Part shown: piece by piece, positions 798-63,028 of the stretch
How positions within the stretch are numbered: the first letter of the stretch is position 1
How the letters are laid out: the number at the start of each line of letters is the position of its first letter
Assembly: GCA_014905635.1 (NCBI GenBank)
Contig: CM026547.1
Span: 1,302,001 to 1,366,000 of the forward strand
Length of the DNA: 64,000 bases
Reading direction: 5' to 3'
Source: Scenedesmus sp. PABB004
Taxonomy: Eukaryota
Notes under the pieces: model-generated
Seen by the model: the letters and a program-made list of their open reading frames with translations, nothing else
Told to the model about the DNA's origin: nothing
Database searches by the model: none
Program-made: the position numbers and the translations under genes

Positions 798-1830
798 ATG
801 TCTGCGCCGGCGGCCCCCGCGGCCCCAGCAGTGGGCATCGGGTCCGCCCCGCCCGCGCCCAAGCACCCCATCGCCTTCATCTTCCACTTCGCCTTCAAGG
901 TGCGCTCCCGCAGCAGCGACAGCGACGGTGCCGCGCATGCGCCGCGGCGGCGCTGCTGTTGGCGCGCCGCGGCCAAGCGCGCGGCCCCGCGCTCCCAGGT
1001 CGCCGCGATGGTGTTTTACATCCTCTGCGAGAGCTTCAACAAGAACAAGTTCGTGCTAAACTTTGTGGTGTGCATAGTGCTGCTCGCGATGGACTTTTGG
1101 ACGGTGCGCAGCGCGGGGGCGGCGCAACCTCCGAGCACGCGGCGCGGCGGCGGCCGCGGCAGCGGCAGCCTCCCACCGCCGCCGCGGCCCCGGCGCGCAG
1201 GTCAAAAACGTGACGGGGCGGCTGCTGGTCGGCCTGCGCTGGTGGAACGAGGGCAACAGCGAGACGGGCAACGCGTGGCGGTTCGAGAGCCTAGCAGAGG
1301 CGCGGCGCGGCGCGGCGGCAGGCCAGGCGGCGCGCGGCAGCGCGGCAGCGCGGCAGCGCCAGAGACGGCGGCTGCGGCGCCCGCCCCCGCTGCGGCGCGC
1401 AGGGTCAGCGCGTGATCAACCCGTACGAGGCGCGCTGGTTCTGGATCGTGCTGGTCGCCAACCCCGCGGTCTGGGCGCTCCTCTGCCTCTCCGCGCTGCT
1501 GGGCCTCGACTGGGGTGCGCGCCGCCGCGCCCGCCGCTGGCCGCCCGCCGTGCCGCTGGCCGCCCGCCGGCAGCAGCAGCGTGGCCGCCCCTCCCCCCGC
1601 GGCGCGCGCGCTGACCTGCGCCGCGCGCGCCGCCCGCCGCCGCCGCGCCGGCAGGCTACCTGCTGATTCCCATCACGGGCGTCGTGCTGGGCGGCAGCAA
1701 CCTGGCGGGCTACTTCAAGTGCAGCAAGGACGCAAAGCGCCAGCTGCAGAGCATGACCGCGAGCATGGCGACGAGCGCGATGACCAGCGCCGTCACGGGG
1801 CGCCTGCAGGCCGCGATCGCGCGCGTGTGA
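798..1830 (+). CDS. TVP23: Golgi membrane protein TVP23/ECHIDNA family (5 exons)
   Basis: Exons ~798-899, 999-1103, 1201-1299, 1403-1514, 1655-1830 give KHPIAFIFHFAFK...[25 protein letters not shown]...WRFES...FW...GSNLAGYFKC. Intron 3 has a GC donor at 1300. Confidence 0.93.
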
Positions 1831-1844
1831 CCACCACGCCCGGC

Positions 1845-1849
1845 TGTAA
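1845..1849 (+). terminator. Chlorophyte poly(A) signal TGTAA for TVP23
   Basis: TGTAA 15 nt after the stop codon. Confidence 0.65.
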
Positions 1850-2094
1850 CGGCGGCGGGCGCGAGCCGAGCCGGCGCGGCGCGGCGCAGTTACCCGCGCG
1901 CGTGGAGGGAGGGAATCAATGACGACGCGACCAAAACTGCGGCAGCAGCAGATGCACCCCGCACACACACATGCGCGCCCCCCGTGCGCGGCTCAAAAGG
2001 AGCTCACGCTATATCGTACACGTGCCAGCGGCGGCGCCAGCCGCCGCGCAGGCGCCGAGGGGCGCCGCCCCGCCCCGCCCCGCCCCCGCCGCGC

Positions 2095-3168
2095 TCACGA
2101 CGAGGCCGGCCCGCCCGCGTGCTGCTGCTGCTCCTGCTGCTGCGCAAACTTGACGAGCGCGTAGTGGTCGTCCGCGGAGGGCCGCACGGTGAGGCTGAAC
2201 GTCTCGTGCTTGCCGCCGCGCTGCACCGCGACGAGCAGGTCGGTGTGCGCGCTGCCGTCGTTCGCGGGCGTCGCGGCGAGCACGTCGACGAGGGCGTAGG
2301 GGAACAGCGAGTTGGAGCGCTGGTTGAGCTGCGCGACGCCCTGCTGCGCCGCCTTGGTCCAGCGCTCGTTGGCCTACTGTCGCGGGCGCGGCGGCGGCGG
2401 TGGTCAGCGCTGCTGCGCCCGCGCGCAACGCGCGCAGCACGGCGCCCCGGCGCGGCGCTCTCACCTCGGCCACGGGGCCCACGAGCTTGAAGTTGGTCAG
2501 CTCCATGGGCAGGTCGTTGGCCTTGACGTTGCACGGCAGCTTCTCCCAAACCGTCACCTCCACGGTCTTGGGCCCCGCGTCGTCGGACGCCTCGATCACC
2601 AGGATGTGGTTCGTGCCCGACACCACCTGGCGCGCGCGCGCGCGCGAGCGGCGGTGGCGGCGCGGCGGCGGCGCCGCGTCGCTGACAGCAGCGTCGCCGC
2701 TGCTGCGCCCCCGCGCTCGCGGCCCCGCGCCGCGCCCGCCGCGGCCCGCCGGCGCGCCGCCCTCCGCCAGGCGAGGCCCCGGGCGCTCGGCCGCCCCGGG
2801 GCGGGCCGGGACGGCCGCGGGGCGGCGCGGGGGGAGAGAGCGAGGGCCGGGATGCCACGGCGCCTGCCCCGGCCGTTGCCGCGGACCGCCCGCGCGCCCG
2901 CGTGGCCACGCGGCCGCTCCCCGCGGCAGCGCGCCCGGCTGCGCACCTGGGTGCGCGCGGAGACGACCTTGCCGAAGCGCAGCGCGCCGGCCTTGGGAAA
3001 GTTGGCCTTGGCGTTGAGCTGCTCCACCGCAAACTCGCCTACCTCGTTGGTGCGCGCCGTGATCGGCGCCTTGGCGGGACCGCCCAGCATCGTGCCGCCG
3101 CCGCTCACGAGCAGAGCGCAGAGGGCGCCCGCGAGCGCGAGCAGGGCCAGGGACTGCGCGGCGCGCAT
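2095..3168 (-). CDS. Secreted cystatin with C-terminal extension (two-domain phytocystatin type)
   Basis: Signal peptide MRAAQSLALLALAGALCALL; MLGG; VGEFAVEQLN (LARFAV-like helix); Q|VVSG (QxVxG split by an intron); VWEK; third exon carries QRSNSLFPY. Exons 3168-2947, 2626-2465, 2373-2095. Confidence 0.88.
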
Positions 3169-3537
3169 CGAGGGACGGGTGGGCGGTGGGCGTGGGCTGG
3201 GGCCGCACCGAGGGGGTCTGGCGGCAGCACCAGCGCGCCGTGCGCGCCACCTGGCGCTACTGACACTGTTCATTGCCCGTCCTCCGCGCTCCTCTGCCCT
3301 CGCCCCGCCCCCGCTCTCCCACACGCCACCCCAGTCCGCCCGCCCTCCCGCCGCGCCCGCGCACCAGCCCATCCAGCCGCCCCTCGCCGCACGCGCGCTC
3401 CGCCGCTGCCGCCGCTGCTGCCGCCGCTGCTGCCGCCGCCGCCGCCGCCACTGCACGCCGCCGGTCTCTTCTCCTGCCTGCGTGCCGGACGCCCGCCCGC
3501 AGCGGAGGGGGAGCCGGCAGCAGAGCGCGCGCGCGGC

Positions 3538-3999
3538 ATGGTGCTGTTCAGCGCCGCCGCGGGCGTGGTCTTCAAGGCGACGGGCGGGCGCATCTGGAAC
3601 AAGCGCTGGGGCCTCCCGCGCCTCTCGCGCAGCCGCAAGGAGAACCGCAAGACCGACGTGGCGCTGTACAACCGCAACATGGAGGTCCTCAAGGCCGCCG
3701 CCGCGGCGCAGCCCGACCCGCCCGTGCGGCTCACCAAGCCGCTGCCGGCGTGGCAGGCGGGCCTCATGGCGCGGCGGCTCGCGGCGGCGCAGCGGCTGCT
3801 CAACGCGCGGGGGCCGCTGCTGCCCGCGGCCGCGGCGGAGGCGGTGATGCAGCAGATGCTGCGCCCGCCGCGCGGCGGCGGCGACGGCGAGCCGGCGGAG
3901 CTGCTCGAGCTGCAGTCGCCCCCGGGCCCGCCGCGCGACCCGCAGTCGCAGCAGCACCACCTCTCGCGCCGCGTGCCCGCGCCGCGGCGGACGCAGTGA
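3538..3999 (+). CDS. Small basic protein, possibly mitochondrial ribosomal protein mL60-like; intronless
   Basis: MVLFSAAAGVVFKATGGRIWNKRWGLPRLSRSRKENRK...; the GG-x-x-W...W..RL...K..R pattern recalls mL60/MrpL31. Coding-like codon usage; GGTAA follows at 4043. Confidence 0.5.
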   Translation: MVLFSAAAGVVFKATGGRIWNKRWGLPRLSRSRKENRKTDVALYNRNMEVLKAAAAAQPDPPVRLTKPLPAWQAGLMARRLAAAQRLLNARGPLLPAAAAEAVMQQMLRPPRGGGDGEPAELLELQSPPGPPRDPQSQQHHLSRRVPAPRRTQ

Positions 4000-4137
4000 G
4001 CGCGGCGATCCGGACGGCGGCCGCTGCGAGCGCGGCCGCCGGGGTAACGGGTGCACCGGCCGAGCCGCGCGCGGGGGGTCGCCGGTTGCCGCCGCGCACC
4101 GCTGGACACTGGGCACCGCCGCGTGCGCCACCACGCA

Positions 4138-6028
4138 CTACCACGCGCCGCCGCGCTCCCAGTCGTAGCAGTCGCCCCGCGGGCGCCGGCCGGCCGCGCG
4201 CGCGGCGTCGATCGCCGCCAGGTCGTCCGCGTCGAGCTCAAACGTGAACAGGCGCCGGTGGTCGCCGACATGGCTGGCGTTGCGCGCGCCGACGATGACG
4301 GCGGGCACGCCGGGGCGCTGCAGCACCCACCGCGCCGCGACGTTGGCGATCGACGTGCCGTGCTTGTCCGCGGCACCGCGCAGCGCGCGCAGCAGCCCCT
4401 GCAGCCACTCCCAGCCGCCGACCTGGCCCAGCACGGCGGCGTACTTGCCCTTGGAGTAGGTGTTGACGTCGGCCGTCGCCGCACCGAGGTAGCGGTCCGA
4501 CAGCAGGCCGCCCGCGACGACGCCGTACGGCAGCAGGCTCAGCCCGCGCGCGGCGCAGAGCGCGGCCATGCCGTTCTCCGGCCGCGCGTCCAGCAGGCTG
4601 TACTGCACCTGCGACCGCGGCGGGCGGCGGGCGGCGGGCGGCGGGCGGCGGCGGGCGGCGGCGGCCGCGTGGGCCCCCCGCGGCGCTGCTGGCCGCGAGC
4701 GAGCGCGGGGCACGCGTGCGGCCGCCGGCTGCCTGCCGCGCGGGCGGCGGGCAGCGCGCCTGGTTGCTGGCGAGGCGCGCGCCCGCGTCGAGCATGCGCT
4801 CGAGGCGGGGCACGTCAAAGTTGGTCACGCCGACCGCACCGATCACGCCCGCGGCCGCGAGGTCGGTCAGGTGGAGCGCGGCGTCGACGTACCTGCGGCG
4901 CGGCGCGTGCGGCGCGTGGGCTGGCGCGCGCGCGCCACGGCGGCGCCGCGGCGGCCCGCATGGGCTGGCCAGCCGGCCGGCCACCCCGGTCGCGCCTGGG
5001 CTGGCTGTAGTCTCCCCAATACAGCTGCAGGAGGTCGATCCGGTCGACGCCGAGGCGCTTGCGGCTGCGCTCCACCGCCGCGCGCACCGCCGCGCCGTCG
5101 AGGGCCGCCATCTCGGCGCGGCTGAAGACGCAGTACTTGGTCGCGACCTGCGCATGACCGCGCGTGGCGCGTGGCGCGGCGCGGCGCGTGGCGCGCAGGG
5201 CGCGGCGCGTGGCGCGCGGGGCGAGGCGCGGACGGCGGCGAGGCAGGGCCGCGGCGGCGCGGCGGCGCCCGGGGCGCGCCTGCACGCGCGGCCGCGCGTC
5301 CGGGTGCTCCGCCAGCCAGCGCCCGATCAGCAGCTCCGCGGGGCCGTAGTGGTCTGCGCGGGCGCGGGCGGGCGGGCGGCCAGGGTCAGGCTGGGCGGCG
5401 GCCGCGCGGGCGGGCCCGCGGCGGCGCAGCCGCGCGGCGGGGCGGCGCACAGCGCGCGGCGCGCGCGCCTGCGGCGTCCCAGGTGGTGATGCCGGCCTGG
5501 TCAAATGCAGTGAAGTCATCGACCGCCGCCTTGCCGCCCGTGCGGTCCGTGTCGCGCTGCGGCGGCGGGCGTGGCAGCGTGCGGCGGCGGCACATATCGC
5601 AGACGGGCCTGCCGGGTAACGCGCGGGCGCCCCCCAGCAGCGCGCACCTCCCCCCGGTGGCCTCCCGAGAGCTGCCAGCAACCCTTGATGACGCGGCTGA
5701 CGCGGAGGTCGGGCGCGGCGGGCGAGAGCGGGATGCTCGGCACCAGCGGCAGCGTCGCCTCCGCCGCCGCCGCCGCCGCTACCGCCGGCGGCACGCCAGG
5801 GCGCCACGCTGCCGCTGCGCTCGCCGCCGCCGCCGCCGCTGCGAGCTGCCGGCGGCCGAGCCGCAGCGCGGCGGCGGGCCCGCCGCTGCTGCCGCTGCCG
5901 CTGCCGCCGTCGCCGCCGCCGCTGATGCTGCCGCTGCTGCTGTGGGCGCGAACGATCAATGCATGTCGGCGCTCGACAATGGGGGCCCGGCACGCCGCGC
6001 CAGGCTGCACGCGCACGCCGAGCGCCAT
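4138..6028 (-). CDS. Aldo/keto reductase, probably plastid-targeted (6 exons)
   Basis: SRVIKGCWQLSGGH, GITTWDAADHYGPAELLIG, VATKY, RLGVDRIDLLQLYWGDY, AVGVTNFD, SNQVQYSLLDARP, YGVVAGGLLSDRY, VIVGARN. Four of its five introns have GC donors. Confidence 0.93.
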
Positions 6029-6396: not shown

Positions 6397-9385
<2,989 letters not shown>

Positions 9386-9842: not shown

Positions 9843-12812
<2,970 letters not shown>

Positions 12813-14773: not shown

Positions 14774-20085
<5,312 letters not shown>

Positions 20086-20820: not shown

Positions 20821-23271
20821 TCACATGCGCCCGCCGCTCCAGCCGCCCTTCACGGCGCTCCCCTGCCGCACCTCGGCCAGGCAGCCGTCGGCGTCGTACG
20901 CGCGCTCCACGAAGAGGCAGCTCCCGCTGTCGAGCAGCCAGTGCAGCCCCACCTGCAGCCCGCGCGCCGCAGGCGGCCCGCCGCCGTCGCCGCCGCCAGC
21001 GCCGTCGCCGCCGACGCCCCCGGTGGCGGCGGCACCATGCGGAACGTCGCCACCGCGCCGCCCGGCAGCCAGAACGAGCCGCCCGAGCCGTCGTCGTCCA
21101 GCTCCTCCGCCGCCGCTGCCGCCGGCGCGCCGGCGCCGTCGCTGCCGCCGCCGGCGCCGGCGCCGTTGGTCGCGGGCGCGCCGGGCGCGGGGGCGCGGCG
21201 CCGAGCGCGGCGCTGGGCGTGATGCCGGGCACGTGCCACTGCTGCCGCTCCTCGCGGCTGCTGTACACATACACCTCCTCCTCCTGCGCCGCCCCGCACA
21301 GCGCGCGCAGCGTCGGCACGGCGCGCGGCGGCGCGGACGCCCCGCCCTGCCCCGCCCCGCCCCGCCCCGGGCCCGGCGCGCGGCCCCGCGCGCCGCCGCT
21401 GCCGCGCCTGCAGGGTGTCGGGGTTCTCCTCCAGCACCGGGTTGACGGACACGACAAACACGTTCCAGCTGCCGCCCAGCGCCACGGGGCTGGGGCGCGG
21501 CAGGCCCGTGACGGGGAGGTCGAACTGGTGCGCCGGCAGCAGCTGCAGCACCTGCCCCGCGCCGCCCGCCGCGGCCGGCTGCGGCGCCGCGGCCGGCTGC
21601 GCCGCCGCCGCGGGCTGCAGCAGGCTCTCGCGGCGGCGCAGGCTGCCGCTCGTGCTCTCGGCCGTGCCGTACCAGTGCTCCTTGTACAGCAGCAGCCGCG
21701 CGACCTCGACGTCCAGCTCGGCCTCGCCCGGCGGCCGGCGCAGCTTGAGCGTGGCGACGAGGCGCAGCCGCGCGTCGCCGCCGGCCACGAGCGCCTGCTC
21801 GATGACCACCGTGCTGCACGGCAGCGACGCGACCGGGTCGGCGCCGCCCTCGTCGCCCTCGCCGCCCTCGTCGTCGTCGCCGGCCGCGGCCGCCAGAAAG
21901 GCCTCCGCGTCGTCGTCGTCCAGCTCAGGCGCGCCTGGCGCGCGGTCGGGCGGGCGGGCGCGGCGCGCGGCGGGCGCGGCGGGGCGCTCGGGCCGAGGCG
22001 GCGGCGCTCGGGCCGAGGCGGCGGCGCGCGGACGCGCGGCGCGGCCCGCGCACCCACGAACTCCGGCCCCGCCGAGTAGGACCCGCCGTTGAAGACCACG
22101 ACGCCGCCGCTGTTGTACGCGAGCGCCTCGCGCTCATCGTCCGCCGCGGCCGCCGGCGCCGCGTCGGCGTCGGCGCTGCCGCCGCCCGCCGCCGCCGCCG
22201 CCGCCGCTGCTGCCGCGGCCTTGGGCGCCGTGCCGCCGATGAGGCTCGCGACCGACGCGCTGCGCAGCGTGGTGCGCACGAGCGCGTCGGCGCCGCCGGG
22301 CTCGTCCGGCACCGCGCCGCGCGCCTCGCTCACGCGGCTGTAGGCGTGCAGCAGGTACGCGCCCGACGCGTCGGCCCACACGGGCTCGGGGTCGCCTGCG
22401 GCGCGGGCAGCGCGCCGCGCGGCGCGGCACGGCGGCGCGGCGCTCGGCGCGGCCCGGCGCGCTCCACGACGCGGGCGCGCGTGCCCGCGTGCGCGCGCGC
22501 GGACCTCCAAAGGGCGTGTAAGCGGCGTACTGCCCGAGCCACTCGCCCTCGCAGTGCCCCGCAAACGTGCCCCACAGCGGCGCCGGTACGACCTCCCAGC
22601 CCGACAGCTCGTCCTGCGGCGGCGGGCGCGGCACGTGGGCGGGCGCGGTGCGTGGGTGGGCGGACGACCTCCCCCCACGCTGGCGCCGCCGCTGCGGCGG
22701 CGACGCGCCGCCGCCGCTGGCAGCCGCTGCGCCGCGCCGCGCCGCGCCGCGCCGCGCCGCGCCGCGCCGCGCCGCGCCGCGCCCACCAGCAGCTGCGGCG
22801 TGAGCGGCGGCGTCAGCTTGTACTCGGGCGCCCGGGGGCGAGGCTTGGGCGCGAAGCCCTGCCCGCTTGGCGTGGAGGCTTTGACCGCGCCGCCCTTGCC
22901 CCCGCCGCCCCCCTTTGCAGGCTTGGCGCCGCCCTTGCCCTTGGCGCCGCCGTTGCCGGCGCCCTTGCTCTTGGCGCCGCTGTCACCGCCGCCACCGCGG
23001 CGTGCGTCGGGCCCGGCCGCCCAGGGGCTGTCGCCCTTCTTGGCAGCGGCCACTGCGGGCGACGGCGGGCACGCGTCGGCGGCGCGACGCCAGGCTCCTC
23101 CGCTGCTCGACGGGGCTTGCTGGCCCTGGCGTGTCGGGCCGCGTCAGCGCGGTCAGAGCACGTGACCGCACCTGAGGCGACGCGTGGGTGGCTGGCGGTG
23201 CGTGCCGCGGCCAGCTGCGCGCCCTGCCGCCGGCCAGCAGCCGCCGCTGCTGCCGGTCCGCCGCGCTGCAT
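20821..23271 (-). CDS. Putative plastid protein, DUF3598/calycin-like beta-barrel (5 exons)
   Basis: Transit-peptide-like N-terminus; WGTFAGHCEGEWLGQYAAY, VVFNGGSYSAGP, VIEQALVAGGDARLRLV, FWLPGG, VERAYDADGCLAEVR. Confidence 0.65.
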
Positions 23272-36392: not shown

Positions 36393-37494
36393 TCAGCGCG
36401 GCGCGGCCACGTGGTGCAGCTCGGGCAGCTGGCCGGCCGCGATCTGCTCCAGCACCGCCTTGGCGGGGTTGGCGCCGACGTGCGCGTCGGCGGGGATCGA
36501 CGGCGCGCTCGCGTCGTGCACGGCGGCGGGGTCGACGTGCCGCAGCTCGTGCGGCGCCGCGACCTCGCTGAGGAAGCCCTCCTTGTCCCACTGCACCGGC
36601 GGGTGGGGGGGGGGGGGGGCGGCGGGCGCCGTCGGCGGGCGCCGCCGGCGGGCGCGCGGCGCGGCGAGCAGCTGCAGGGGCGCGCAGCGCGCGCGCGCGT
36701 GGCGGGGCCGCGCCTTTTGCACGTGCGTGCTGGGGTCGAGCGCGGGCTTGGCCTTGTCGGCGGTCTCCACGTGGTGCAGCTGGGCCACGAGCGGGCTGGC
36801 CTCCAGGTCCTCGTCGCAGTCGCCCGCGCCCGCTGCGGCGCCGACGGCGCCGACCTCGCGCACCACCGCCGCGTGCGCCGCCGCGGCGCGCACCTCCTGG
36901 AGCAGCTCCGCGCGGTTGCTGGGCTGCACGTGCACGTCGGCTGCGGCGCGGCGGAGCGCCGGGCGGAGCGTCGGGCGGAGCGTCGAGCGGAGCGTCGCGC
37001 GGCGCTGGCGACCGCCGCGCGTGCGCGAGGGCAGCGCAGGCGCCGCTGGCTCACGCTCAATCACGGGCTTGGCCTTGTCCACCGTCTCCACGTGCTTCAG
37101 CGGCACGCCTGCGGGCGGCCGCAGCGACAGCAGCGACAGCAGCGCGTCGGCAGCGGCACCAGCGGCGGCGGCACGCAGCGCGTCGCAGCAGCGCCGGCAG
37201 GCCGGCGGCACGCCTTCCCCTGCCATCCGTGCCCTGGCGCGGCCGCCCGGGGTGCCGCTGCTCGGTGCCTCGGTTTCGGAGCTGTCGGAAAGCAGCCCCT
37301 ACAGCCGCACCGGCCTCGATGCCCGCGAGCAGGCCCTCCTTGTCCCACGTCTTGAGGCTCGCATCACTCTCGATGGCTGGCGCGCTGCGGTCCGACGTCT
37401 CCACGTGGCGCAGCGGGCACCCGCCCGGGATGGCCGCGACGACAGCTGCTGCAGCCGCAGGCGCTGCAGCTGCTGCAGCCGCAGGCGTCGCCAT
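36393..37494 (-). CDS. Actobindin-like (beta-thymosin/WH2 repeat) actin-monomer-binding protein, ~220 aa (4 exons)
   Basis: Exons 37494-37311, 37108-37055, 36940-36714, 36590-36393. Repeats: LRHVETSDRSAPAIE, LKHVETVDKAKPVIEPDVHV, LHHVETADKAKPALD, FLSEVAAPHELRHV..HDASAPSIPADAHV, VLEQIAAG..ELHHV. Confidence 0.82.
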
Positions 37495-42138: not shown

Positions 42139-43307
42139 CTAGTACATGAATGGAATGAACTTGGCGACCTTGGCGCGGTAGTCGTCGTACAGCTTGCCGT
42201 ACCGCTCCTGCAGCAGCCGCTCCTCAAGGCCCACCTTGCGCTCGAGCACGGCCCACAGCAGCGCCGCCATGGCGAGCCGCGTCTCGTTGCGCGTGATGAC
42301 CGCCAGCCCAAACGCGGCCGCGAGCAGGCCCGCGTACATGGGGTGCCGCATGTAGCTGAACATGCCGGACGTGACGAGCTCGTGCCGCGCGCGCGGCGCG
42401 GGCAGCGGCGAGATGAAGCGCCCGAGGCTCACCACGCCGTACACCCTGGCAGCGCAGCGGCGGCGGCGGCGGCGGCGGCGGCGTGCCGGCGGGTCGGCGG
42501 ACGGCGTGCCAGCAGGTCGGCGCCCGCGCGCGCGCGCTCAAGTGAGCCCGCCGCCCGCTGCCGGCCGCTGGCGGCCGCTGGCGGCCGCTGCTCACATGAA
42601 GACGAGGCCCGACGTGATGAGCAGCGTGGCGAGGATGTCGACCAGGCCCTGCGCGCAGGCGCGGGAGGGCTGGGCCCCCAGCCGCGCGCGGCGCACAGGG
42701 GCGCCCGCTGCTGGCCGCGCGGCCGCGCGCGCCCACCGTGAGCTGGAACGGCGGCAGCAGCACGAGGACCATGACCGCGATCTGCGCGAGCGTCCACGCC
42801 TCGCCGCGCTTGCCAAACTGCGACTGGTCCTGCAGCTCGGTCAGCAGCTCCTGCGCGCGAGGGCGGGCGCGCGGCAGCGGCGGGTGAGGCGCGCGCCCGC
42901 AGCCGGCCGCCGCCGGCGCGTCTGCCGGCGCGTCCGCCGCGGCGACGCGAGCCGCGGGCGCCGCGCCTGCGCGGCCTCCTGGATGTCCGGCAGCGGGTGG
43001 CTGCCCACCACCGCCTGCTCCGCGGCGCTGCCCGGCTCCTCCACGGCGCTGGGCTCAACCACCGAGACCTTGGCCTCGGCGTCCTCGGCGGCGCTGCGCG
43101 GGCAGCAGCGGCGGCGGCGCTCGGCGGCCGCGCGGCGAGCGGGTGCGGGGCCCTGCGCTTGCGTGCCCTGGCTCACCTGGTCGCCCGCCTCACAAGGCGG
43201 CGCCGAGGCGGGGCGCCGAGCCGGCACGCGGCCGGCAGGCGCGGGGCCGGGCGCTGCAGCGCGCGCATCTGCGCGCCCCCACACGGCGCGGCCGCCAGCG
43301 CTGCCAT
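42139..43307 (-). CDS. ICMT/PEMT-family membrane methyltransferase, probably plastid-targeted (5 exons)
   Basis: FGKRGEAWTLAQ, SLGRFISPLPAPR, ELVTSGMFSYMRHPMYAGLL, KVGLEERLLQERYG..YDDYRAKVAKFIPFMY. Confidence 0.88.
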
Positions 43308-43738: not shown

Positions 43739-46103
43739 ATGGCGGCCTCCTGGTTCCGTGGCCGCGCCTCCACGCCCGGCGTGGACGCCGCCAACGCGGC
43801 GGCGGCGCGCGGGCGGCCGCTGCTGCTCATCGGCTTCAACGAGGCCGCTGGCGCGTGGGAGGTCGGCCGGGAGGCGCTCGACACGCTGGCCGGCATCAAG
43901 GGCCCGCTCTGCACGCTCTCCGTCTGCGGGCGCGCGCGGCAGGGCAAGTCGTTCCTGCTCAACACGCTGCTCACCAAGCTCACGGGCGTGCCGCAGCACG
44001 AGGGCTTCGTCGTCTCGCCGACGCACCAGTCCTGCACGCGCGGCATCTGGATCTGGTCCGCGCCCGTCGTCATGGCGGGGCCCGACGGCCGCAAGTGCAA
44101 CACCGTGCGTGGCGCGGCGCGCAGCGCGGCGGCATGGCGCGCAGCGTGGCGCGCGGCGGCGCCGCCCCGCCGACGCGCCGCCCCGCGCGCCGCCGCCGGC
44201 GGCCGCAGATCCTGATGGACTGCGAGGGCGTGGACGCCGTCGACCAGGCGCGCGGCGCGCGCTGGGAGGGGCGGCGGCCGCGGCCGCGCGCGCCCCGCCG
44301 GTGGCCGGCGCCGACGCCCCTCCCTCCCCTCCCCTCCCTCCCCCCTCCCCTCCCTCCCCTCCCCTCCCCTCCCTCCCTCCCCTCCCTCCCCTCCCTCCCT
44401 CCCCTCCCCTCCCCTCCCCTCCCCTCCCCTCCCCCTCCCCTCCCCTCCCCTCCCCCCTTTGTCCGTCCGCCGGTGCCGGCGCGCAGGGCCAGCAGCACAG
44501 CGCGCAGATCTTCAGCCTCGCGGTGCTGCTGTCGAGCATTTTCGTGTACAACCAGGTCGGCGCGATCGACGCCATCGCGGTCGAGCGCCTCGCGATGGTC
44601 TGCGAGCTCGCAAAGCGCATCAAGGACAAGAGCGTGCCCGGTGCGCGCCGCGCGCCGGCACCGCCAGACGCGCCAGCCGCCAGCGCGGCGGCGCGCGCCC
44701 ACCCACGCGCGCGCCGCCCGCAGGCGCGGCGTCCTCCAACGGCGCGCTCGGCGCGTCGTCGGCGACGGGGCAGACCGACTTCTCGCCCGCCTTCGTCTGG
44801 CTCCTGCGCGACTTCCAGCTGCGCCTGGAGAACACGCAGGGCGCCATCACGCCCGCCGAGTACCTGGAGGAGAGCCTCGCGCCCATCAAGGGCAACGAGG
44901 CAGACCTCGCCAACCGCAACCAGGCGCGCGGCGCCGCCCGCGCGCGCGAGCGGCCCGCTCAGGGCGGCGCGGCTGGCGCCGGCTGCGCGCGCCGGCGAGG
45001 TGCCGAGCGCGCGCGCGCCGCCGCCGCCGCGTCGCCGCCGCCGGCGCGCAGATGCGGTCGACCATCAAGGCGGTCTTCCCCGACCGCGACGTCGCGACGC
45101 TCGTGCGGCCGATGCTGACCGAGGCCGACCTGCAGCGCCTCGACAAGCTCAGCCTGGACAAGCTACGACCAGAGTTCCAAAAGGTGCGCGCGCCGCGCTT
45201 GGCTTGTCGAGGCGCGCCCGGCGCCCCGGCGAGCGGCACCGCGGCGCCGCGTCCGCGCCGCGCGCGCCGAGGCGCGACCGCCCCGCCCGCCGCGCGCCGC
45301 GGCGGCGCGCAGGACGTCGAGGCGCTGATGAAGACGCTGCGCGCCAAGGTGCGCCCGCTGGCGGTCGGCGGCACGCTCGTCAGCGGCACCGCGCTCGCCG
45401 GCCTCGCGGGCGCGTACGTTGACGCCGTCAACAAGGGTGCGCCGCGCCGTGGGCCGGCCCCTTGGGCACGCGGGCCGCGGGCGCAGCGACGCGCCGCACG
45501 GGGCGCGCGCAGCGCCGACGCTGCGCCCGCGCTCGCGCGCGCAGGCGCGGTGCCGCAGCTCGTGACGGCGTGGCAGGGCGTGTCGCGCGCGGAGTGCGCC
45601 AAGGCGTACGAGGCCGCCGCGGCGGCCTTTGACGCCGGCTTTGACCCGGCCGGCATCAACGACGAGCACGCGCTGTACGAGGCCTACGCGGCCGCGCTCA
45701 AGGCGCGCACGCGCGGCGCGCACGCACGCAGCACGGCACCCCGCCCCGCGCTCCGCACGGCGCACCGCCTGCTGCGTCGCACGCGCACGGCGCGCGCCCG
45801 CGCCCTGCCCCTCCCAGCGCGCGCTGTCCCCCCCCCCCCCCCCCCCCGTGTGCGCGCAGGCGTCGCTGGAGGTGTTCAAGCGCGGCGCGATGGGCGAGCC
45901 AGAGCTGCTGGGCGAGTACGAGGCCCGCCTGCGCGGCGCGCTCGAGGCGCGCTTCCTCGACGCCAAGCGCGCGCTCGCGGCGACGGGCGAGCGCCTCGCG
46001 AGCCAGATGCTCGCCGCCGAGGGCGACACGCTGCGCGCGCTCATGGCCGGCCCCGGCGCGAGCGTCGACGCGGTCGAGGCGGAGCTGCGCCGGTGCGGGA
46101 GGC

Positions 46104-46240: not shown

Positions 46241-46273
<33 letters not shown>

Positions 46274-48894: not shown

Positions 48895-51678
<2,784 letters not shown>

Positions 51679-52068: not shown

Positions 52069-55000
52069 ATGGACGCCGTCGTGAGGGCGCTCACCGACCT
52101 GCACCGCGCGGCGGGCGCGGTGTGCGCACAGCTGCAGGCGGGCCCGCCCTGGGCGGCCGGCGGCAGCGGCGGCGCCGGCGGGCGCGGCCGCGCGGGCGCG
52201 CCGCCGCCGCTGGCCGGCCTGGGCGGCGCGCAGCGCGGCGCCGGCGCCGGCGGCGCCGCGCGGCGCGTGCGCTTCGCGCCGCCGCTGGCGGCGATCGGCG
52301 CGTTCTCGGGCGGCGGCCGCGGCGGCGGCAAGGCCAAGGGCCGCAGCGGCAAGCCCGAGCCGGAGGAGGAGGAGGAGCGCGTGCTCATCAGCGAGGCGCG
52401 GCGCGCGCGGCGGCACGCGCTGCGGCATGCACGCGCTGCGGCACGCGCGGCGCCCGCCAGCCCGCATGCACACGCGCCGCGCCGCGCGGCGCGCGCAGGT
52501 CGAGGTCGTGGGCGTGAGCGAGGAGCTCAAGGCGATCGCGCTGTCCGCGCTCACGGCGCGGCCCAACTTTGCGTACACGCTCAAGGAGGTCGAGGCCGAC
52601 CTGCGGCGCGTCTTTGCGACCGGCTGGTTCTCCAGCTGCGTGCCCGACGCAGAGGACACGCGGGACGGGGTCAAGCTGGTCATACGGGTGGGCGCGGTGT
52701 GGCGCGCGGCCCCGTACTGGCGCCGGCGGCGGGGCGCTGCGCCCGGGTCGCCGCGCGCGTGACGCGCGCGTGGCGCGCCGCCGCAGGTGACGGCCAACCC
52801 GGAGCTGCGCGGCGTCGTCGCGCGCGGCGCCAACGCGCTGCCCACGCGCGTCGTGGCGCGGGCGTTTGCGCCGCTGTACGGCGGGCCGCTCAACTACGTG
52901 GCCTTTGGCCGCGCCGTGGAGAAGCTGGACGCCTGGTACCGCGAGCGCGGCATCCTCGGCCAGGCGCGCGCGGGGCGGGGGAGGTCGCGGGACGGGGCGC
53001 GCGCGCTGCGCGTGAGCCGCGGCTGGCGCCGTGCGCAGGGGCGGCGCCAGCAGCCCCCTCCCCTCTCGCGCAGGTCATCGACTTCAACTTTGAGGGCGGC
53101 GTCGTCGACCTCACGCTCGGCGAGGCGACCGTCGGCGCGGTGGCGCTCGCGTTTGTCGACCCCGCGACCTCCAGCCCCAAGCCGAGCGGCGCGACGCGCG
53201 AGCACGTCGTGCGCCGCCACCTCACGACGGCGCCGGGGCGCGTGTACAGCCTGCGCCAGGCCAAGGCCGACATCGACGCCATCTACTCGACGGGGCTCTT
53301 TGACGACGTCAACATCCTACCCCAGGAGGCCGAGGACTCGACCGAGACCGCACCCAAGGTACTGGGGCCGGGGCCGGGGGCTGGGGACCGGGGACCAGGG
53401 CCGGGGCGCCGCGCCGGCGGCGGCGCGCCGGCCGACCACGACGTCGCTGACCGCGCCCGCCGCTCGTCGCCTGGCTGTGCAGGTGGACCTGACGGTCAAC
53501 CTGGTGGAGCGCAAGACCGGCGGCCTGGGCGCGGGCACGGGCATCAGCGCGGCGGGGCGCGGCGCGGGCAGCATGCCCGGCTTTGTCGGCAACTTCACGT
53601 ACAGGCGCGCCGCGCCCGCCTGGCCCCGGCACAGGCACCGCACGGCCCCGGCACAGGCACCGCGGCGCGGCTGCCGCGGCGCCTCGCTCGGCCGCCCAGC
53701 GGCGGCCCGCCGGCTCCGCGGCGCCCTGCCGACGCGCGCTCCGCCGCGCCCGCCGCACGCGCTGCGCCCGGCGCAGCCAGCGCAACCTGTTTGGCCTCAA
53801 CCAGAAGCTCTCGGCGCTCGTGGAGCTGGGGCAGAGCGACAGCCTCTTCCGCGCGCAGTGGGTGGACCCCTGGATCCGGGGCGACCCCAAGCGCACGAGC
53901 ATGACGGTCAGCGTTATGAACACACGGTGCGGCAGGGCTTGGGCTTAGCATGGCCACCACGTGGGCCGCATGGGCCACGTGGCAGCGCCGGCAGGGTGTG
54001 GGCGGGCGCGCAGGCGCGCGGGCGCGCTGGGCGCGGCTCACACGCGTCGCCCGCGCCCCACGCCCCGCCCACCCGGCGCAGCACGTCGGCGGCGGCCATC
54101 CACGGCAAGGCGCTCGACGCCGACCCCGCCAGCCTCGACGACGCGGGCGACGCGCAGGCGGGCGGCGACGCGCGCGGCGCCGACGGCGTCACGCTGGGCC
54201 GCCTCGTCGCGGGCGCGGAGTGGCGGCGCCCGCTGGCGGCAAACTGGAGCGGCATCGCTGGTGGGCGCTGCGGCGGCCGCCCGCGGCGCGCGAGCCCGTG
54301 CGCCCCGCGCGGGCGCACCCCGACCCGGCCGCCGCCGCCGGCGCCGCCGGCGCGCAGGCCTGACGTGGCAGCGCAGCAGCTGCATGGACGCGCACGGCGC
54401 GCCGCTGCTGTCGGACGCGTACGGCGCGCCGCTGACGTTCAGCGGCAAGCCCAGCGACTCGATGCTGCTGGGCGTGATCAGCGGGTCATACAGGCGCGCG
54501 CGCCGCGCCGCGCCGTGCCGCGGGGCACGCGGCTCGCGGCGGGCCCGCCGCGCCGCCGCGCCTTGCGCCGCGCGCGCGGCAGCCGACGCGCGCCGTCGCG
54601 CGCCGCTGCGCAGCGGCCCCGGCGACGGCAGCCAGCTCGGCGTGTCGCTGGAGCAGGCGCTGCCGCTGCACCCGGCGTGGCTCAACTTCAACCGCCTGCG
54701 CCTGCGCCTGGAGCAGCCGGTCAGCCTGGGCCCGCTCACGCTGAGCCTGCGCGGCAAGGCAGGGTCGGTCTACGGCGACCTGCCCCCCTATGAGGCCTTC
54801 CCCCTGGGCGGCACCAACAGCGTGCGCGGCTACGCCGAGGGCGGCGTCGGCTCGGGGCGCCACTTTGTCGAGGGCACCGCCGAGCTGCGGTGCGCGGGGG
54901 GCCCGGGCGCGGCGGCGGGCGCGACGCGCCTTGGCCCGCTTGCGGCCCGCCTGCGTCGCCACGCGCGCGGGCTCAGGCCGCGCGCGCCGCCGCGGCCCGC

Positions 55001-55364
55001 CGCCGCGCGCGCAGCTGGCTGCTGATGGCGCCTGTGCACGGCACGCTGTTCGCCGACTACGGCAGCGACCTCGACTCCGGCGAGAGCGTCATTGGCGACC
55101 CAGCGGGCACGCGCGGCAAGCCCGGCAGGCGAGCGGGCCCGCGCCGCGCCGCCGCCCGCGCCGCGCCGCCGCCCGCGCCGCGCCGCCGCCCGCGCGCACG
55201 CATGCCCGCGCGCGCGCCCGCCTGACCCGCCCGCCGCGCCGCGCAGCGGGTATGGCTTTGGCGGCGGCATCCGCGTCGACTCGCCGCTCGGCCCCGTGCG
55301 GCTGGAGTACGCGTGGAACGACCAGCGCCGCGCGCGCTTCCACGTGGCGCTCGGCTACGACTGA
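52069..55364 (+). CDS. OEP80: Chloroplast outer envelope Omp85 protein OEP80/Toc75-V (11 exons)
   Basis: [141 protein letters not shown]. Confidence 0.95.
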
Positions 55365-59517: not shown

Positions 59518-59877
59518 GGCGCGACGGCGTCAGGGCACTGGAGGCGCCCAATGAGCGCGCTCAGGCGGGCCCCATGCGCGCGTTTGCCGAGTGCTGCTGC
59601 AGCAGCCGCGCGGACGACCGCCAAACGCGCTGCTCGCAGGCACAAACAAGGGATCTGGGGGGTGCTGGACGCGACGCCGCAGCGCGCGGGCGAAGTCGAC
59701 GGCGGCGGCGGCGGTGCAGCAGCGGCGCGTTTGTGACGGCAGAGGCTTGCTGCTGGCCCGCTCCATCGCACGGACTCTCATTCGCGCTTCCAGCTGCGCC
59801 GCGTCCCTCGCCTCCCCACGCCGACGACACCGCGCACCGCATGCGCCACCCGCTGCTCGCCGCACGCGCACGCGGCG

Positions 59878-61288
59878 ATGCAGCGCGCGCAGCTGCGTGC
59901 CGGCGCCAGTAGACCCAGCACGCCCGGCGCGCCGCAGCCGCCGCTGCGCCGCCGGCGCGCGGTGGCACGGCCGCCACGGGCGGCGGGCGAGCAGCGCCAG
60001 CCAGAGGACGGCGCCGCGCCAGCGACCGCGCCGCAGCCGCAGCAGCCGCCGGGCGGCGGCCTGCCCTCCAGCCCGACAGACGCGATTGTGTGGGGCGGGC
60101 GGCTGCCGAGCAGGCGGCGCGCCACCGTGGGCCTCGCGACTGCCGCGGGCATCGGTGCGCAGCGCGCGGCGCGCGGCGCGGCGCGCCGCCCAGAGCTGCA
60201 GGGGCCCCACGCCCGCCCGCGCCGCCCGCGCCGCCCGCGCCGCCCGCGCCGCCCGCGCCGCCCGCGCCGCCCGCGCCGCCGCGCCCCGCAGCGCTGGGCG
60301 GCAACCTCGGCGGCGTGACGAGCTGGCTGCTCGGCCTCGACGGCGGCCGCCTCGCGGCGCGGCTGCACGCCGACGTGCTGGTCCCCGTGCGCGGCTTCAA
60401 GCGCTGCCTCGACGCGGCCAACGGCTTCGGTGCGCGCGCCGCAGCCGCGCCCGCGCCGCAGCGCCCGCGCCGCAGCGCCCCGCCCACACGCCTCGCGCCC
60501 CGCCCTGTGGCCCCGCCGGCCCCGCCGCCCAGAGTTTGTCTACCCCGCCGCCTGGCTGGCCGACCAGACGCTGCTCTACCGCGCCGCGCAGCGCGCCGAG
60601 GCCGCGCGCAGCCTCGACCCGCAGCCGCTGCGGCGCCCGGCGCGGCGCGCGCGCGAGGTCGTGGAGCCGGTCGCCGCGTTTGGGCCGCCCGGGAGCAGCG
60701 GCGAGGAGAACGTGAGCGTCATCGTCGCGCCCATCTACGCCGGCTTTGAGCTGCAGTCGCTCGGCCCGCCCGCCGGCGCGGCGCAGGCGTTCCTCGACAC
60801 CATCGCCGCGCCGCCCCGCGGCGACAAGGCCGCCGCGCTGCTCGCCGCGGCGCAGCGGTGCGCGCGCGCGCGCCGGCGGCGGCGCGGCCGGCCGCCCTGC
60901 GCGGGGCGGCGCGGCGGCCGTGTCCCACCCGCGCGCCGCGCGCGCCCTGCGCCAGGCGCGACGCCAGCGGTGTGCTGTACTACACCTTTGAGTTCACGAT
61001 CGCCAAGGCCGGCGCGTTTGACCGCCACAACGTCGCGGTGCGGGGCGCGGCCGCGCGCCGCTGGCGGCTCGCCGGCGCCCGGGTCGCGCGCGCCGAGCCC
61101 ATCGCGCGCCGAGCCCGCCCCCGCGCGCCCGCCAGGTGCTGGCCAGCCGGGGCGACCTGCTGTACACGCTCACCGCGCAGTGCCCGGCGTCGCGCTGGGC
61201 GGCGGACGGACCGGCGCTGCGCGCGGCGGCGGAGAGCTTCGCCCTCACGCCCCGCACCCCGGGCGCGTTCCCGGCCGCCCTGGCGTAG
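59878..61288 (+). CDS. PPD7: PsbP domain-containing protein 7, thylakoid (5 exons)
   Basis: ALGGNLGGVTSWLLG, DVLVPVRGFKRC, FEFVYPAAWLADQTLLYR, VAAFGPPGSSGEENVSVIVAPI, YYTFEF, RHNVAV, LYTLTAQCP..RW. Confidence 0.9.
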
Positions 61289-61488
61289 CGGGCGGCCGAC
61301 GGGCGCCTGCGGTCGCGGCGGCGTGTGAGCGCTGCGCCCCGCCCGCTGCGCCCCGCCGCGCCGCGACCGCCGCCGCTCTCGGTCCGGCCTCCACCCGTGC
61401 GTCGCCCACTCTCGAGCCCGCCGCCCCACGCCCCTCGGCCGCGCGCCCCTCTCGCGTTTCGCAGCAGCAGCACATCGATCTCCACCCG

Positions 61489-63028
61489 ATGGCGCTCGCC
61501 TTCCGCGCCGTGCGCGCCTCCGGCAGCGCTTCCGTGGGCCGTCAGGCCTCCAGGTGCGCCCCGCGATTGCCGGCGCGGCGCCGCGGCCGCGCGGCAGCGA
61601 GGGCCCACCGCCACACGCCCGCAGGCCGCGCGTGAGCCGTGCCGCGGTGGTCGTGCGCGCCGCCAAGGTGCGCTGGGCGCCAATGTGGGGCGGCCGGGCG
61701 ACCCGGATCGGCGCGCCACGAACGCGCGGCAGCGGGCGCAGCAGGCGCCGGCCAGACCAGGTCGGCAGGCCGCGGAGCGCGGGGGCACGCTCATTGCCGG
61801 CGCCCCGGGCCCCCTGATCGCCCCGGGCCCGTGGCCGGCGGGCGGCAGCAGGGCGGCGCGGCGGGATCGGGGCGCGCGGTCGGCGCGGCAGCGGCAGCTG
61901 CGTGCCCACGCCCCGCCGCCGACGCGCGTGGCGCTTGCTGCCGCCGCCCCCGCAGCCCGACGCGACCGCCTCCCGCCGCGAGGCCGTGGCGGCGGCCGTG
62001 TTTGCCGGCGTCCTGGCGCAGGTCGCGCCCGCGCAGGCGTTCCTCGGGTGCGCGGCGCAGGCCGCGCGGGGCGCCCGCCGCGCCCGCCCGCGCGCGTACG
62101 GCTGCACCGCACGCGGCCGGCCCCGCCCACGCACCCGCCTGCGCCGCGCGCGCAGCTTCGGCGAGGGCAAGGCGCGCGAGGAGGCGTACGTGTCCGAGAC
62201 GGTGCGGCGACGGCGCCGCCGCAGGGGGCGCGTCGCGCGCTGTGGCCGCCCGCGGCGTCGCCACGCGTGCCCCGTCGCCGCCCGCGGCGCGGCGCGCCGG
62301 CCGGCCCACGCGCGCCCGCGCGCTGCCGCCGCCCGGGCGCCGCAGACCGCCATCCTGGGCAAGGTCAACACCGTGCTGGCGCTCGACAAGGACGACCCGA
62401 CCAAGGAGGAGAGCGTCAAGGCGGTGAGCGCCAGCGCCGCCGCCCCAGCGCCGCCCCCCGCCCCCCAAAGCGCCGCGCCGGGGGCAGCGCGCGGCGGCCC
62501 GCAGCCGCCGCCGCCGCCGACGCGCGTCCGCGTCCGCGTCCGCCGCGGGCGGCGCCGCCGCAGCTGCGCAAGGACATCAACGCCTGGGTCGCCCGGTACC
62601 GCCGCGACGCGAGCTTCTCGGGCAAGCCCTCGTACGGGTGGGCCGCGCGGCGCGCCGCGCGCCGCCCAGGGGCGGCGCCGGCAGGCGCGGCCGGCGCGCG
62701 CGCCGCCCGCGAGGCGCTGCGTCCGGCGCTCACGCCGCGCGCGGCCGCGCGCCCCGGCGCCGCTGCCGCAGCAACACCTACTCCGCGCTCAACGCGCTCG
62801 CGGGGCACTACAACAGCTTTGGCGCGACCGCGCCCATCCCCAAGAAGCGCCTCGACCGCCTCTCCAAGGCGCGCGGGCGCCGGGGGCGGGGCGGGCGGCG
62901 CGGCGCCGCCGCCCGCGCGGTCCGCCCGCCCGCCGGCGCGCGGCTCAGTGCGCCGCCCGCCGCGCGCCGCCCCGCCCGCCGCGCAGGAGCTGGGCGACGC
63001 CGAGCTGCTGCTGGCGCGCGGCCGCTGA
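61489..63028 (+). CDS. PSB27: Photosystem II repair/assembly protein Psb27 (8 exons)
   Basis: SRREAVAAAVF..APAQA Tat-type lumen signal; LRKDINAWVARYRR, GKPSYGNTYSALNALAGHYNSFGATAPIPKKRLDRL..EL..AELLLARGR. Confidence 0.94.

Follow-up and report, generated by a model that had tools for sequence, protein, structure and literature searches.

Abundant GC-AG introns coupled to exonic AG in a GC-rich 64-kb window of the green alga Scenedesmus sp. PABB004

The locus analyzed here raises the question of whether introns with a GC donor can be frequent in an algal nuclear genome and, if so, how their 5′ splice sites would be recognized. As a norm, GC-AG introns account for about 1% of introns. The window (i.e., the whole 64-kb stretch of DNA that was analyzed) has a GC content of 79.3% and belongs to Scenedesmus sp. 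PABB004, a chlorophycean green alga whose genome is listed with a size of 39.8 Mb and 78.5% GC. A preliminary description of the window listed 27 GC donors, and we found AG/GC on the strand of the gene at all of them (the slash marks the exon-intron boundary), with 26 reading AG/GCGCG and one (55129) reading AG/GCGAG. All 27 introns start with GC and end with AG, and they are distributed over 12 genes, on both strands and along the full window length (Table 1). The GC-donor share amounts to 27 of 101 introns when the claimed GC introns are combined with the GT introns of our parser, and to 36 of 110 when all confident parser introns are counted, so that the “one intron in four” proposed earlier becomes a range from a quarter to a third. 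The abundance of GC-AG introns in the window, as read from the DNA, is confirmed.

Over both strands of the whole window, we counted 99 copies of AGGCGCG and 9 of AGGCGAG. Since AGGCGCG is frequent in DNA of 79.3% GC, the motif by itself is no proof of a donor. Strong coding potential ends at 23 of the 99 AGGCGCG sites versus 17 of 798 sites for control words (ten words of equal composition), an approximately tenfold enrichment at exon ends; the proportion for GGTGCG is similar (31/144). We then relied on an unsupervised gene parser that carries no motif prior. Allowing GT and GC donors but using no flank information, it placed 23 of the 27 listed donors exactly, and with EM-trained site models it recovered all 27, flagging 26 as confident; the Psb27 donor (62869) was left unflagged because of its short last exon. 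Nine further GC donors proposed by the parser lack an exonic AG and, if real, would violate the AG rule described below. In a decoy control, the parser used any allowed second dinucleotide for 14 to 38 “confident” introns, and its GC-donor count is therefore no evidence by itself. The GC donors are set apart from the decoys only by their flanking information (6.3 bits versus 0.8 to 3.9 bits) and by the homology tests.

Residue-level homology supports 20 of the 27 GC junctions, in that the reading frame becomes collinear with orthologs once the segment is removed. At donor 1300, the agreement is within one residue, and six donors (11667, 11887, 21407, 36713, 42966, and 62869) were placed by the parser, outside the homology tests. 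When junctions were scored against ortholog profiles, with all GT and GC donors up to 75 nt away admitted as candidates, the claimed GC donor was the best junction in 15 of 16 cases in four genes, those for OEP80, an aldo-keto reductase (AKR), a uridine kinase/UPRT (UKL), and a guanylate-binding protein (GBP). The margins over the best GT range from 6.5 to 98 bits, one intron having no GT option; AKR donor 5468 is followed after 18 nt, at 5450, by an in-frame GT resembling the consensus. In the 16th case (OEP80 54494), a second GC donor at 54500 scores almost equally, where the broad profile favors 54500 and the best GT scores 1.4 bits lower. By comparison, other introns of the same four genes were scored as GT in 16 of 17 cases. 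Four more GC donors, in PheRS and YAK1, have flanking exons that adjoin without a gap in Pfam or PDB coordinates, and a public protein model of this locus (P0001; 99% identity, last AKR exon) contains all eight AKR and UKL GC junctions. As the preliminary description pointed out, OEP80 intron 52396-52498 contains no GT at all, and six other GC introns share this property (7/27). Altogether, these results support the interpretation of the listed introns as real GC-AG introns, present far above the usual 1%.

Table 1. GC-AG introns of the window, with the evidence bearing on each (slashes mark exon-intron boundaries or adjoining residues)
Feature	Position	Strand	Evidence
GC-AG intron, TVP23/DUF846, GAG/GCGCGG...GCAG, no internal GT	1300..1402	+	Pfam DUF846 continuous within 1 residue; parser
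GC-AG intron, AKR	4609..4759	-	Ortholog profile, 51 bits above best GT; Pfam flush 161/162
GC-AG intron, AKR, split Arg codon AG/G	4893..4995	-	16.7 bits above best GT
GC-AG intron, AKR	5148..5279	-	8.5 bits above best GT
GC-AG intron, AKR	5354..5468	-	6.5 bits above GT at 5450; collinear with Tetradesmus ortholog P0002
GC-AG intron, UKL, split Arg codon AG/G	6987..7153	-	9.8 bits above best GT; GT counterpart in L048
GC-AG intron, UKL	7575..7725	-	Best junction; no frame-keeping GT candidates within 75 nt
GC-AG intron, UKL	8347..8440	-	12.7 bits above best GT; Pfam PRK flush 105/106
GC-AG intron, UKL	8600..8725	-	56 bits above best GT
GC-AG intron, WDR26-like, no internal GT	11667..11769	+	Parser and coding frame only
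GC-AG intron, WDR26-like, no internal GT, split Arg codon AG/G	11887..11979	+	Parser and coding frame only
GC-AG intron, YAK1/DYRK kinase, no internal GT	18324..18439	-	Flush in DYRK3 5y86_A 318/319, also DYRK2 and HIPK3 chains
GC-AG intron, gene without Pfam match	21284..21407	-	Parser only
Extra candidate GC-AG intron outside the earlier list, CAG/GCGCGCGC	28015..28209	+	Parser only; following exon begins at DUF2921 profile position 55
GC-AG intron, WH2-repeat (actobindin-like) gene	36591..36713	-	Parser only
GC-AG intron, ICMT/PEMT-family gene, unconserved N-terminal part	42851..42966	-	Parser only
GC-AG intron, GBP	44248..44486	+	18.7 bits above best GT
GC-AG intron, GBP	44924..45051	+	48 bits above best GT; Pfam GBP flush 202/203
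GC-AG intron, GBP	45703..45859	+	37 bits above best GT
GC-AG intron, PheRS alpha	49355..49493	-	Pfam tRNA-synt_2d flush 147/148
GC-AG intron, PheRS alpha	50390..50541	-	Flush in three PDB chains, e.g., 3l4g_A 229/230
GC-AG intron, PheRS alpha	51113..51257	-	Pfam PheRS_DBD3 continuous 24/25
GC-AG intron, OEP80, no internal GT	52396..52498	+	16 bits above best GT; LISE/VEVV collinear with homologs
GC-AG intron, OEP80	52964..53073	+	9.2 bits above best GT; homolog collinearity
GC-AG intron, OEP80, no internal GT	53605..53776	+	8.7 bits above best GT; homolog collinearity
GC-AG intron, OEP80, donor ambiguous with GC at 54500	54494..54613	+	Two closest homologs: 54494 collinear, gap-free
GC-AG intron, OEP80, sole GCGAG donor, no internal GT	55129..55246	+	98 bits above best GT
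GC-AG intron, Psb27, ahead of 13-residue last exon	62869..62986	+	Parser; upstream exon ends at ~131 of 140, Psb27 profile

The two donor classes differ on the exon side. An exonic AG at -2/-1 precedes 27 of 27 GC donors versus 22 of 74 GT donors (p = 2e-11). Where sites were selected by motif, whether in the preliminary description or by the EM model, this comparison is in part circular; it is clean only for the 16 profile-tested sites. Arginine codons split by an intron read AG/G at 3 of 3 GC donors and CG/N at 7 of 7 GT donors; within exons, AGR makes up 11 of 674 Arg codons. The AG rule thus appears strong enough to keep rare AGG arginine codons at junctions, and the proposed reliance of GC donors on exonic AG is borne out by both comparisons. 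The companion claim that GT donors need no upstream AG holds for A-2 but not for G-1, which is kept in 66 of the 74.

Beyond the exon, the GC and GT classes agree at donor positions +3 (G), +4 (C), and +5 (G) as well as in acceptor and intron length, with median lengths of 123 (GC) versus 125.5 (GT) nt and a shared GCAG/ acceptor whose C at -3 is found in 27/27 GC and 73/74 GT introns. The match to CAG/GTRAGT is 5.74 (GC) versus 5.92 (GT) of 9 positions (p = 0.34). Given this equal match to the canonical U1-complementary consensus, the exonic A-2 would simply replace the lost +2 pair. The earlier statement that compensation is absent here was therefore too strong, since it is present on the exon side, in line with what is established for GC-AG introns (PMC1557818). 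On the intron side, C occupies +4 in 26/27 GC donors and, as previously described, in most GT donors (47/74), versus 47% C in intron interiors, while G at +4 is found in 0/27 GC and 11/74 GT donors versus 40%. At +6, C is found in 19/27 GC and 52/74 GT donors, so that C exceeds the intron background at both positions in both classes; among GT donors, A at +4 also remains above background (14/74 versus 6%). The canonical U1 end offers no complementarity to C at +4 or +6, and pairing to it does not explain this enrichment. As for U12-type introns, the donor RTATCCTT or its GCATCC form (PMC1557818) is found at 0 of the 27 sites, all of which read GCGCG or GCGAG from +1 to +5.

We consider it probable that these GC-AG introns are of the ordinary U2 type, with GC pressure behind their high frequency and with compensation on the exon side. 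According to this explanation, T at intron +2 would have been replaced by C in these introns of a chlorophycean alga, driven by extreme GC-biased mutation or gene conversion, and selection would permit C at +2 solely in AG context, with 25-33% GC donors in the window as the outcome. The A-2 and G-1 contacts would substitute for the pairing lost at +2, thereby leaving total complementarity to the canonical U1 5′ end unchanged. That the same machinery reads GC and GT introns is suggested by the shared G+3, mostly C+4, G+5, GCAG/ acceptor, and length of ~125 nt. The intron orthologous to that of UKL donor 7153 in a 72.9% GC relative (metagenome contig L048) has a GT donor, CG/GTGAGG, at the same position and phase, and the proposed GT-to-GC direction is taken from this one intron. 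Together with the 78.5% GC of the genome and the precedent of the alga Emiliania huxleyi, this GT ortholog makes GC pressure plausible as the driver; a correlation between genome GC and splice-site GC has been described (PMC7072748).

If the GC donors were instead chance motif matches with misplaced boundaries, the true donors would be nearby GT sites. The 99 copies of AGGCGCG, the behavior of the parser toward decoys, and an in-frame GT within 45 nt at 14 of the 27 GC introns all speak for this reading. However, such a GT is absent at 13 of the 27 and GTGNG-like at only 3, and the profiles that prefer the claimed GC donors prefer GT for nearly all other introns of those genes. Also against it are the four junctions flush in Pfam or PDB coordinates, the introns devoid of GT, and the enrichment of the motif at exon ends. 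We regard this reading as largely refuted and as very improbable. Practically no credence is due to an assembly or base-calling error in which a T at +2 was read as C: miscalled GT donors should show the context of the GT class, yet every listed GC donor follows AG, the rare AG/G Arg codons are located exactly at GC donors, and the AKR and UKL GC junctions recur in the public protein model. The window could also be unusually rich in GC donors, with a much lower genome average, given that 64 kb of a 39.8-Mb genome were seen and that Ostreococcus splice signals vary by genomic region (PMC2483917). We find this quite unlikely, since the donors are dispersed over genes, strands, and the whole window, and the match between window and listed genome GC counts against a feature of this region only.

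The preferences at +4 and +6 bear on a further reading, in which an altered spliceosome (e.g., in the U1 5′ end, U6 ACAGAGA box, U5 loop 1, or Prp8/U1-C) would have GYGCGC as its cognate donor, leaving +2 nearly free. The preference for C at +4 and +6 and the avoidance of G at +4, relative to intron interiors, are consistent with it, and Irimia and Roy also considered such a change for the GTGCGTG consensus of Ostreococcus (PMC2483917). Nevertheless, altered snRNA or protein factors are unneeded, as the GC donors equal the GT donors in complementarity to the canonical consensus. Moreover, dependence on AG is the classical form of compensation, GT donors retain an excess of A at +4, and GTGCG donors in another green alga make C+4 unspecial to this lineage. 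We therefore consider an altered spliceosome unlikely. There is, likewise, a small chance that the donor code is G-Y-G-C-G-C, with C over G at +4 and +6 in both classes and +2 almost free after exonic AG, by way of co-evolved spliceosomal RNA or protein. If true, this code would mean that 5′ splice-site recognition was re-tuned in this lineage, beyond the tolerance of a weak variant. The co-evolved component could be, for example, Prp8/U1-C, the U1 5′ end, or the U6 ACAGAGA box (the sequence itself or its modification). A search for snRNA genes gave no Rfam match in the 64-kb window.

Returning to ordinary U2-type introns with exon-side compensation, the window, if representative, would provide a second, independent natural experiment on extreme GC pressure reshaping a core RNA-recognition signal, and it offers a clean rule, namely C at +2 only after exonic AG. 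Gene finders restricted to GT would mis-model at least a quarter of introns in such genomes; the first E. huxleyi annotation mis-modelled introns by assuming GT donors (PMC4028052). Our full-text searches, together with a survey, mostly by title and abstract, of papers mentioning PABB004, returned no report of a GC-AG share in the tens of percent besides E. huxleyi, and none for green algae.

The closest known system is E. huxleyi, a haptophyte with 65% GC in which 56-65% of donors are GC, a share attributed to its GC-rich genome and verified by RT-PCR and RNA-seq (Feldmesser et al. 2014, PMC4028052). Both cases combine a GC-rich algal nuclear genome, a large GC share of U2-type introns (here among those of the window), and canonical AG acceptors. 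Unlike E. huxleyi, the present case is chlorophycean, with 78.5% GC and 25-33% GC donors in one window, and is known from sequence alone. Generic U2-type GC-AG introns, which make up 0.4-0.9% in human, mouse, fly, worm, and Arabidopsis (Sheth et al. 2006, PMC1557818), likewise pair a GC donor with an AG acceptor; they use the GT-AG spliceosome, as the window introns probably do, their +2 mismatch to U1 is compensated elsewhere in the 5′ splice site, and switching between GT and GC is described as common (PMC1557818). In the window, by contrast, the frequency is ~30-fold higher and compensation is exon-only (A-2, G-1), the intron side reading GCGCGC like the local GT donors and not shifting toward GCAAGT. 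The green alga Ostreococcus lucimarinus, with an intron-poor genome, has GT donors with an atypical GTGCGTG consensus (Irimia and Roy 2008, PMC2483917), sharing G+3, C+4, and G+5 with the GTGCGC found here; that consensus is described for GT donors, and the description mentions no excess of GC donors. Given E. huxleyi (PMC4028052) and the Ostreococcus consensus (PMC2483917), a “shifted code” unique to this lineage becomes less convincing.

Each of the 27 sites that the preliminary description had listed as GC donors carries the proposed motif on the strand of the gene named for it, 26 of them as AG|GCGCG and one, at 55129, as AG|GCGAG. Such a motif is cheap at the composition of this window (64,000 bases, 79.3% GC, zero N), where GC dinucleotides number 27,804 against 4,585 for GT, and where AGGCGCG occurs 99 times and AGGCGAG nine times when both strands are counted. 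Since chance picks are possible under these circumstances, we put the donor status of the sites to the test. The composition of the window is close to that reported for the Scenedesmus sp. PABB004 genome as a whole (39.8 Mb, 78.5% GC, 7,092 genes; PMC12571836). Coding exons can be distinguished by their third-position GC of 96.7%, as given by a codon model fitted to the window's own sequence, and confident introns have a GC content of 87-90%.

Using this codon model, we found that 23 of the 99 AGGCGCG occurrences lie at a transition from strongly coding sequence upstream to none downstream. Ten control words matched in composition do so in 17 of 798 occurrences, for example AGGCGGC in 1/64, AGGCGCC in 0/37, AGCCGCG in 0/74, and TGGCGCG in 1/88. 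The GT-type word GGTGCG marks the end of coding sequence in 31 of 144 occurrences.

To score the junctions by homology, we built ortholog profile HMMs for OEP80, the aldo-keto reductase (AKR), the uridine kinase/UPRT (UKL), and the guanylate-binding protein (GBP), with the alga's own proteins excluded. The search around every intron extended 75 nt for donors (GT or GC) and 75 nt for acceptors (AG), and all frame-preserving pairs were scored. The GC donor was best at all four AKR introns (margins of 6.5-51 bits), all four UKL introns (9.8-56 bits, with no GT candidate at all at 7725), and all three GBP introns (18.7-48 bits); the Tetradesmus ortholog of AKR, P0002, is collinear across all four GC junctions. 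Four OEP80 donors gave comparable results (table). For the fifth, claimed at 54494, a GC donor at 54500 scored highest with the best GT just 1.4 bits lower, and the junction at 54494 aligns without gaps to the two closest homologs. As a control, among the 17 other introns of these four genes the same procedure picked GT in 16, despite GC dinucleotides being six times commoner; the lone exception is in GBP (44632 versus 44641), where GC was picked by 1 bit. Outside the profiled genes, junctions in the PheRS alpha and YAK1/DYRK kinase genes are flush with Pfam or PDB coordinates (table), and at TVP23 1300 the family coordinates join up to within one residue. Altogether, comparison with profiles, Pfam, and PDB confirms 20 of the 27 claimed donors, a count that leaves out 1300 as well as 11667 and 11887 (WDR26-like), 21407 (a gene without a Pfam match), 36713 (actobindin-like), 42966 (ICMT/PEMT family), and 62869 (Psb27). 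When the WDR26 junctions were compared with PDB, WD40 repeats matched everywhere and only one exon matched a WDR26 chain. Three short homologs of the OEP80 exon (P0121-P0123) were dropped as junction evidence, being single-exon genomic ORF calls.

Junctions and parser donors with the support obtained for each (window coordinates)
Feature	Position	Strand	Support
OEP80 GC donor	52396		profile HMM, GC over best GT by 16 bits
OEP80 GC donor	52964		profile HMM, GC over best GT by 9.2 bits
OEP80 GC donor	53605		profile HMM, GC over best GT by 8.7 bits
OEP80 GC donor	55129		profile HMM, GC over best GT by 98 bits
PheRS GC donor	49493		junction flush, Pfam 147|148
PheRS GC donor	51257		junction flush, Pfam 24|25
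PheRS GC donor	50541		junction flush, PDB 3l4g_A 229|230 and two other chains
YAK1 GC donor	18439		junction flush, DYRK3 5y86_A 318|319; also DYRK2, HIPK3
GC donor without exonic AG	309	+	parser
GC donor without exonic AG	5883		parser
GC donor without exonic AG	14784		parser
GC donor without exonic AG	17791	-	parser
GC donor without exonic AG	21201		parser
GC donor without exonic AG	24116		parser
GC donor without exonic AG	27805	+	parser
GC donor without exonic AG	47139		parser
GC donor without exonic AG	58165	-	parser
Extra candidate GC-AG intron, absent from the preliminary description; DUF2921-like membrane protein gene	28015-28209	+	CAG|GCGCGCGC ... GCAG, full consensus

Two further observations concern donor choice in these genes. 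In OEP80 intron 2 (+), the broad profile favours a GT at 52670, and the parser and closest homologs fit a GT at 52688 (CGG|GTGGGC), leaving the exact donor ambiguous. In AKR, an in-frame, consensus-like GT (GCT|GTGCGC) lies at 5450 (-), 18 nt inside the GC intron starting at 5468; it is possible that this is an alternative 5' splice site, which would add six residues.

We also parsed the window by dynamic programming, with AG as the acceptor and either GT or GC as the donor. When run without flank information, the parser placed a donor exactly at 23 of the 27 claimed sites. In a second run, EM training from flat starts supplied the donor and acceptor matrices. This run found all 27 (26 flagged confident) and gave 110 confident introns in the window, 74 GT and 36 GC, and it learned CAG|GCGCGC for the GC class and G|GTGCGC for the GT class. 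As a decoy control, GC was replaced as the second permitted donor by GG, CG, CC, GA, TG, AG, CA, CT, TC, or AC. Each decoy still received 14-37 "confident" introns, and the total score with CG (5398.8) exceeded that with GC (5341.8). Some 30 introns lack a good GT site, and for these the parser takes whichever dinucleotide is permitted. Therefore, we treat the parser counts as a denominator and not as proof, and the total score was dropped as evidence. What we retain from the parser, beside the homology tests, is flank information content only, which is 6.3 bits for GC compared with 0.8-3.9 bits for the decoys; the best of these, CG and CA, both re-find the GC donor motif displaced by 3 nt (one codon).

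Could these introns be spliced at nearby GT sites, or could the C at +2 be a base-call error? Seven of the 27 GC introns, 11667 and 11887 among them, contain no GT; for 13, the nearest 45 nt hold no GT in frame, and an in-frame GTGNG-like alternative exists for only three. Miscalled GT donors would carry the upstream context of the GT class, but AG was observed upstream in 27/27; this internal difference from the GT class excludes base-call error. The parser GC donors that lack exonic AG, nine in number (table), would break the rule that GC always follows AG if they are real. One of them reads CAA|GCGCGC and lies in the YAK1 gene. Several look like artefacts that bridge gene ends or low-complexity stretches.

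Comparing the two donor classes, we found that they differ essentially at +2 and -2. All 27 GC donors have A-2, G-1, G+3, and G+5, and 26 have C+4; the counts for 74 GT donors are 25 (A-2), 66 (G-1), 72 (G+3), 70 (G+5), and 47 (C+4). An upstream AG precedes 27/27 GC donors versus 22/74 GT donors (p=2e-11). Both classes share the acceptor GCAG| and have similar median intron lengths (123 nt for GC versus 125.5 nt for GT). Of the GC donors, 19 fall between codons (phase 0), the preceding one being an AG-ending codon for Gln, Lys, or Glu; another seven are in phase 2 and one is in phase 1. Split arginine codons follow the same division, being AG|G at 3/3 GC donors and CG|N at 7/7 GT donors, compared with 11 AGR among 674 arginine codons within exons of the window (p=7e-6). 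Since two of the three AG|G sites, 4995 and 7153, were fixed by the profile test without knowledge of the motif, the AG requirement is not merely an artefact of site picking.

The consensus donor CAG|GTRAGT is fully complementary to the U1 5' end. GC donors match it at 5.74 and GT donors at 5.92 of nine positions (p=0.34), and this similarity suggests that the exonic A-2 compensates for the pair lost at +2. Where the exon ends in AG, C+2 occurs in 27/49 donors, compared with the 88% predicted by intron-interior composition if the position were free; therefore, +2 is relaxed after AG but not neutral. C+4 is found in 26/27 GC and 47/74 GT donors versus 47% expected from the intron background, and G+4 in 0/27 and 11/74 versus 40% expected. 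Position +6 behaves likewise, with C enriched and G avoided beyond intron composition in both classes. This C preference at +4 and +6 is not explained by pairing to the canonical U1 end. An Rfam scan of the 64-kb window gave 0 matches, snRNA genes included.

The evidence best supports the classical interpretation, that these are U2-type GC-AG introns. The same machinery would read GC and GT introns, the U1 mismatch at +2 being offset elsewhere in the site; compensation would be purely exonic, with the intron side remaining GCGCGC as in local GT donors, and the process was probably driven by GC-biased mutation or gene conversion. The unusual features are the frequency of GC donors and the purely exonic compensation.

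A metagenome scan with the UKL alignment yielded 80 loci, the majority of which lack introns. We compared four by tblastn (L048, L046, L043, and L026), reading the junctions of L048 fully and one boundary of L046; only L048 has an intron in common with the window. L048 (72.9% GC, at most 76% protein identity) has, at the codon and phase of GC intron 7153, the donor CG|GTGAGG within an arginine codon CG|C. This single case fits GT being the state in a relative of lower GC, with -2 and +2 having changed together. In L048 (6415-6680 and 7567-7940), the exons are GC-rich, but the introns, whose donors are GTGAG, are richer in AT than those of the window; tandem repeats and a long (CA)n microsatellite also occur. 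An introner or repeat test by all-against-all blastn of the window introns gave 4528 matches, which linked introns of both donor classes, lay on both strands, and fell in low-complexity GC-rich sequence. Intron sequence in the window is so GC-rich and simple that such a comparison produces thousands of spurious matches.

The deposited protein P0001, "UKL1 [Scenedesmus sp. PABB004]" (1141 residues, 99% identical to the last AKR exon), carries all eight AKR and UKL GC junctions when compared with the spliced translations; thus, GC introns are implicit in the deposited annotation. P0001 (2465-9415, -) fuses three neighbours, the uridine kinase/UPRT, the aldo-keto reductase, and a cystatin-like protein, bridged via low-complexity Gly/Ser/Ala stretches; the Tetradesmus orthologs of its parts are separate proteins (P0272, 557 aa; P0002, 330 aa). 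Judged by title and abstract, none of the papers mentioning PABB004 is about splicing, and among the matches listed in full-text searches, none described raised GC-AG usage for green algae. The abundance of GC-AG introns is real and uncommon, and in this lineage apparently undescribed.

It is also mechanistically conventional, with a published precedent in another alga. In model organisms, GC-AG introns are reported at 0.37-0.86%; other donor positions compensate for the U1 mismatch at +2, and GT/GC switching is common (PMC1557818). Across kingdoms, genome GC is reported to correlate with splice-site GC (PMC7072748). For E. huxleyi, at 65% GC, 56-65% GC donors are described, verified by RT-PCR and RNA-seq and credited by the authors to GC content (PMC4028052). 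The GTGCG-type GT donor of the window is likewise published for Ostreococcus lucimarinus, for which compensating snRNA changes were proposed as worth exploring (PMC2483917).
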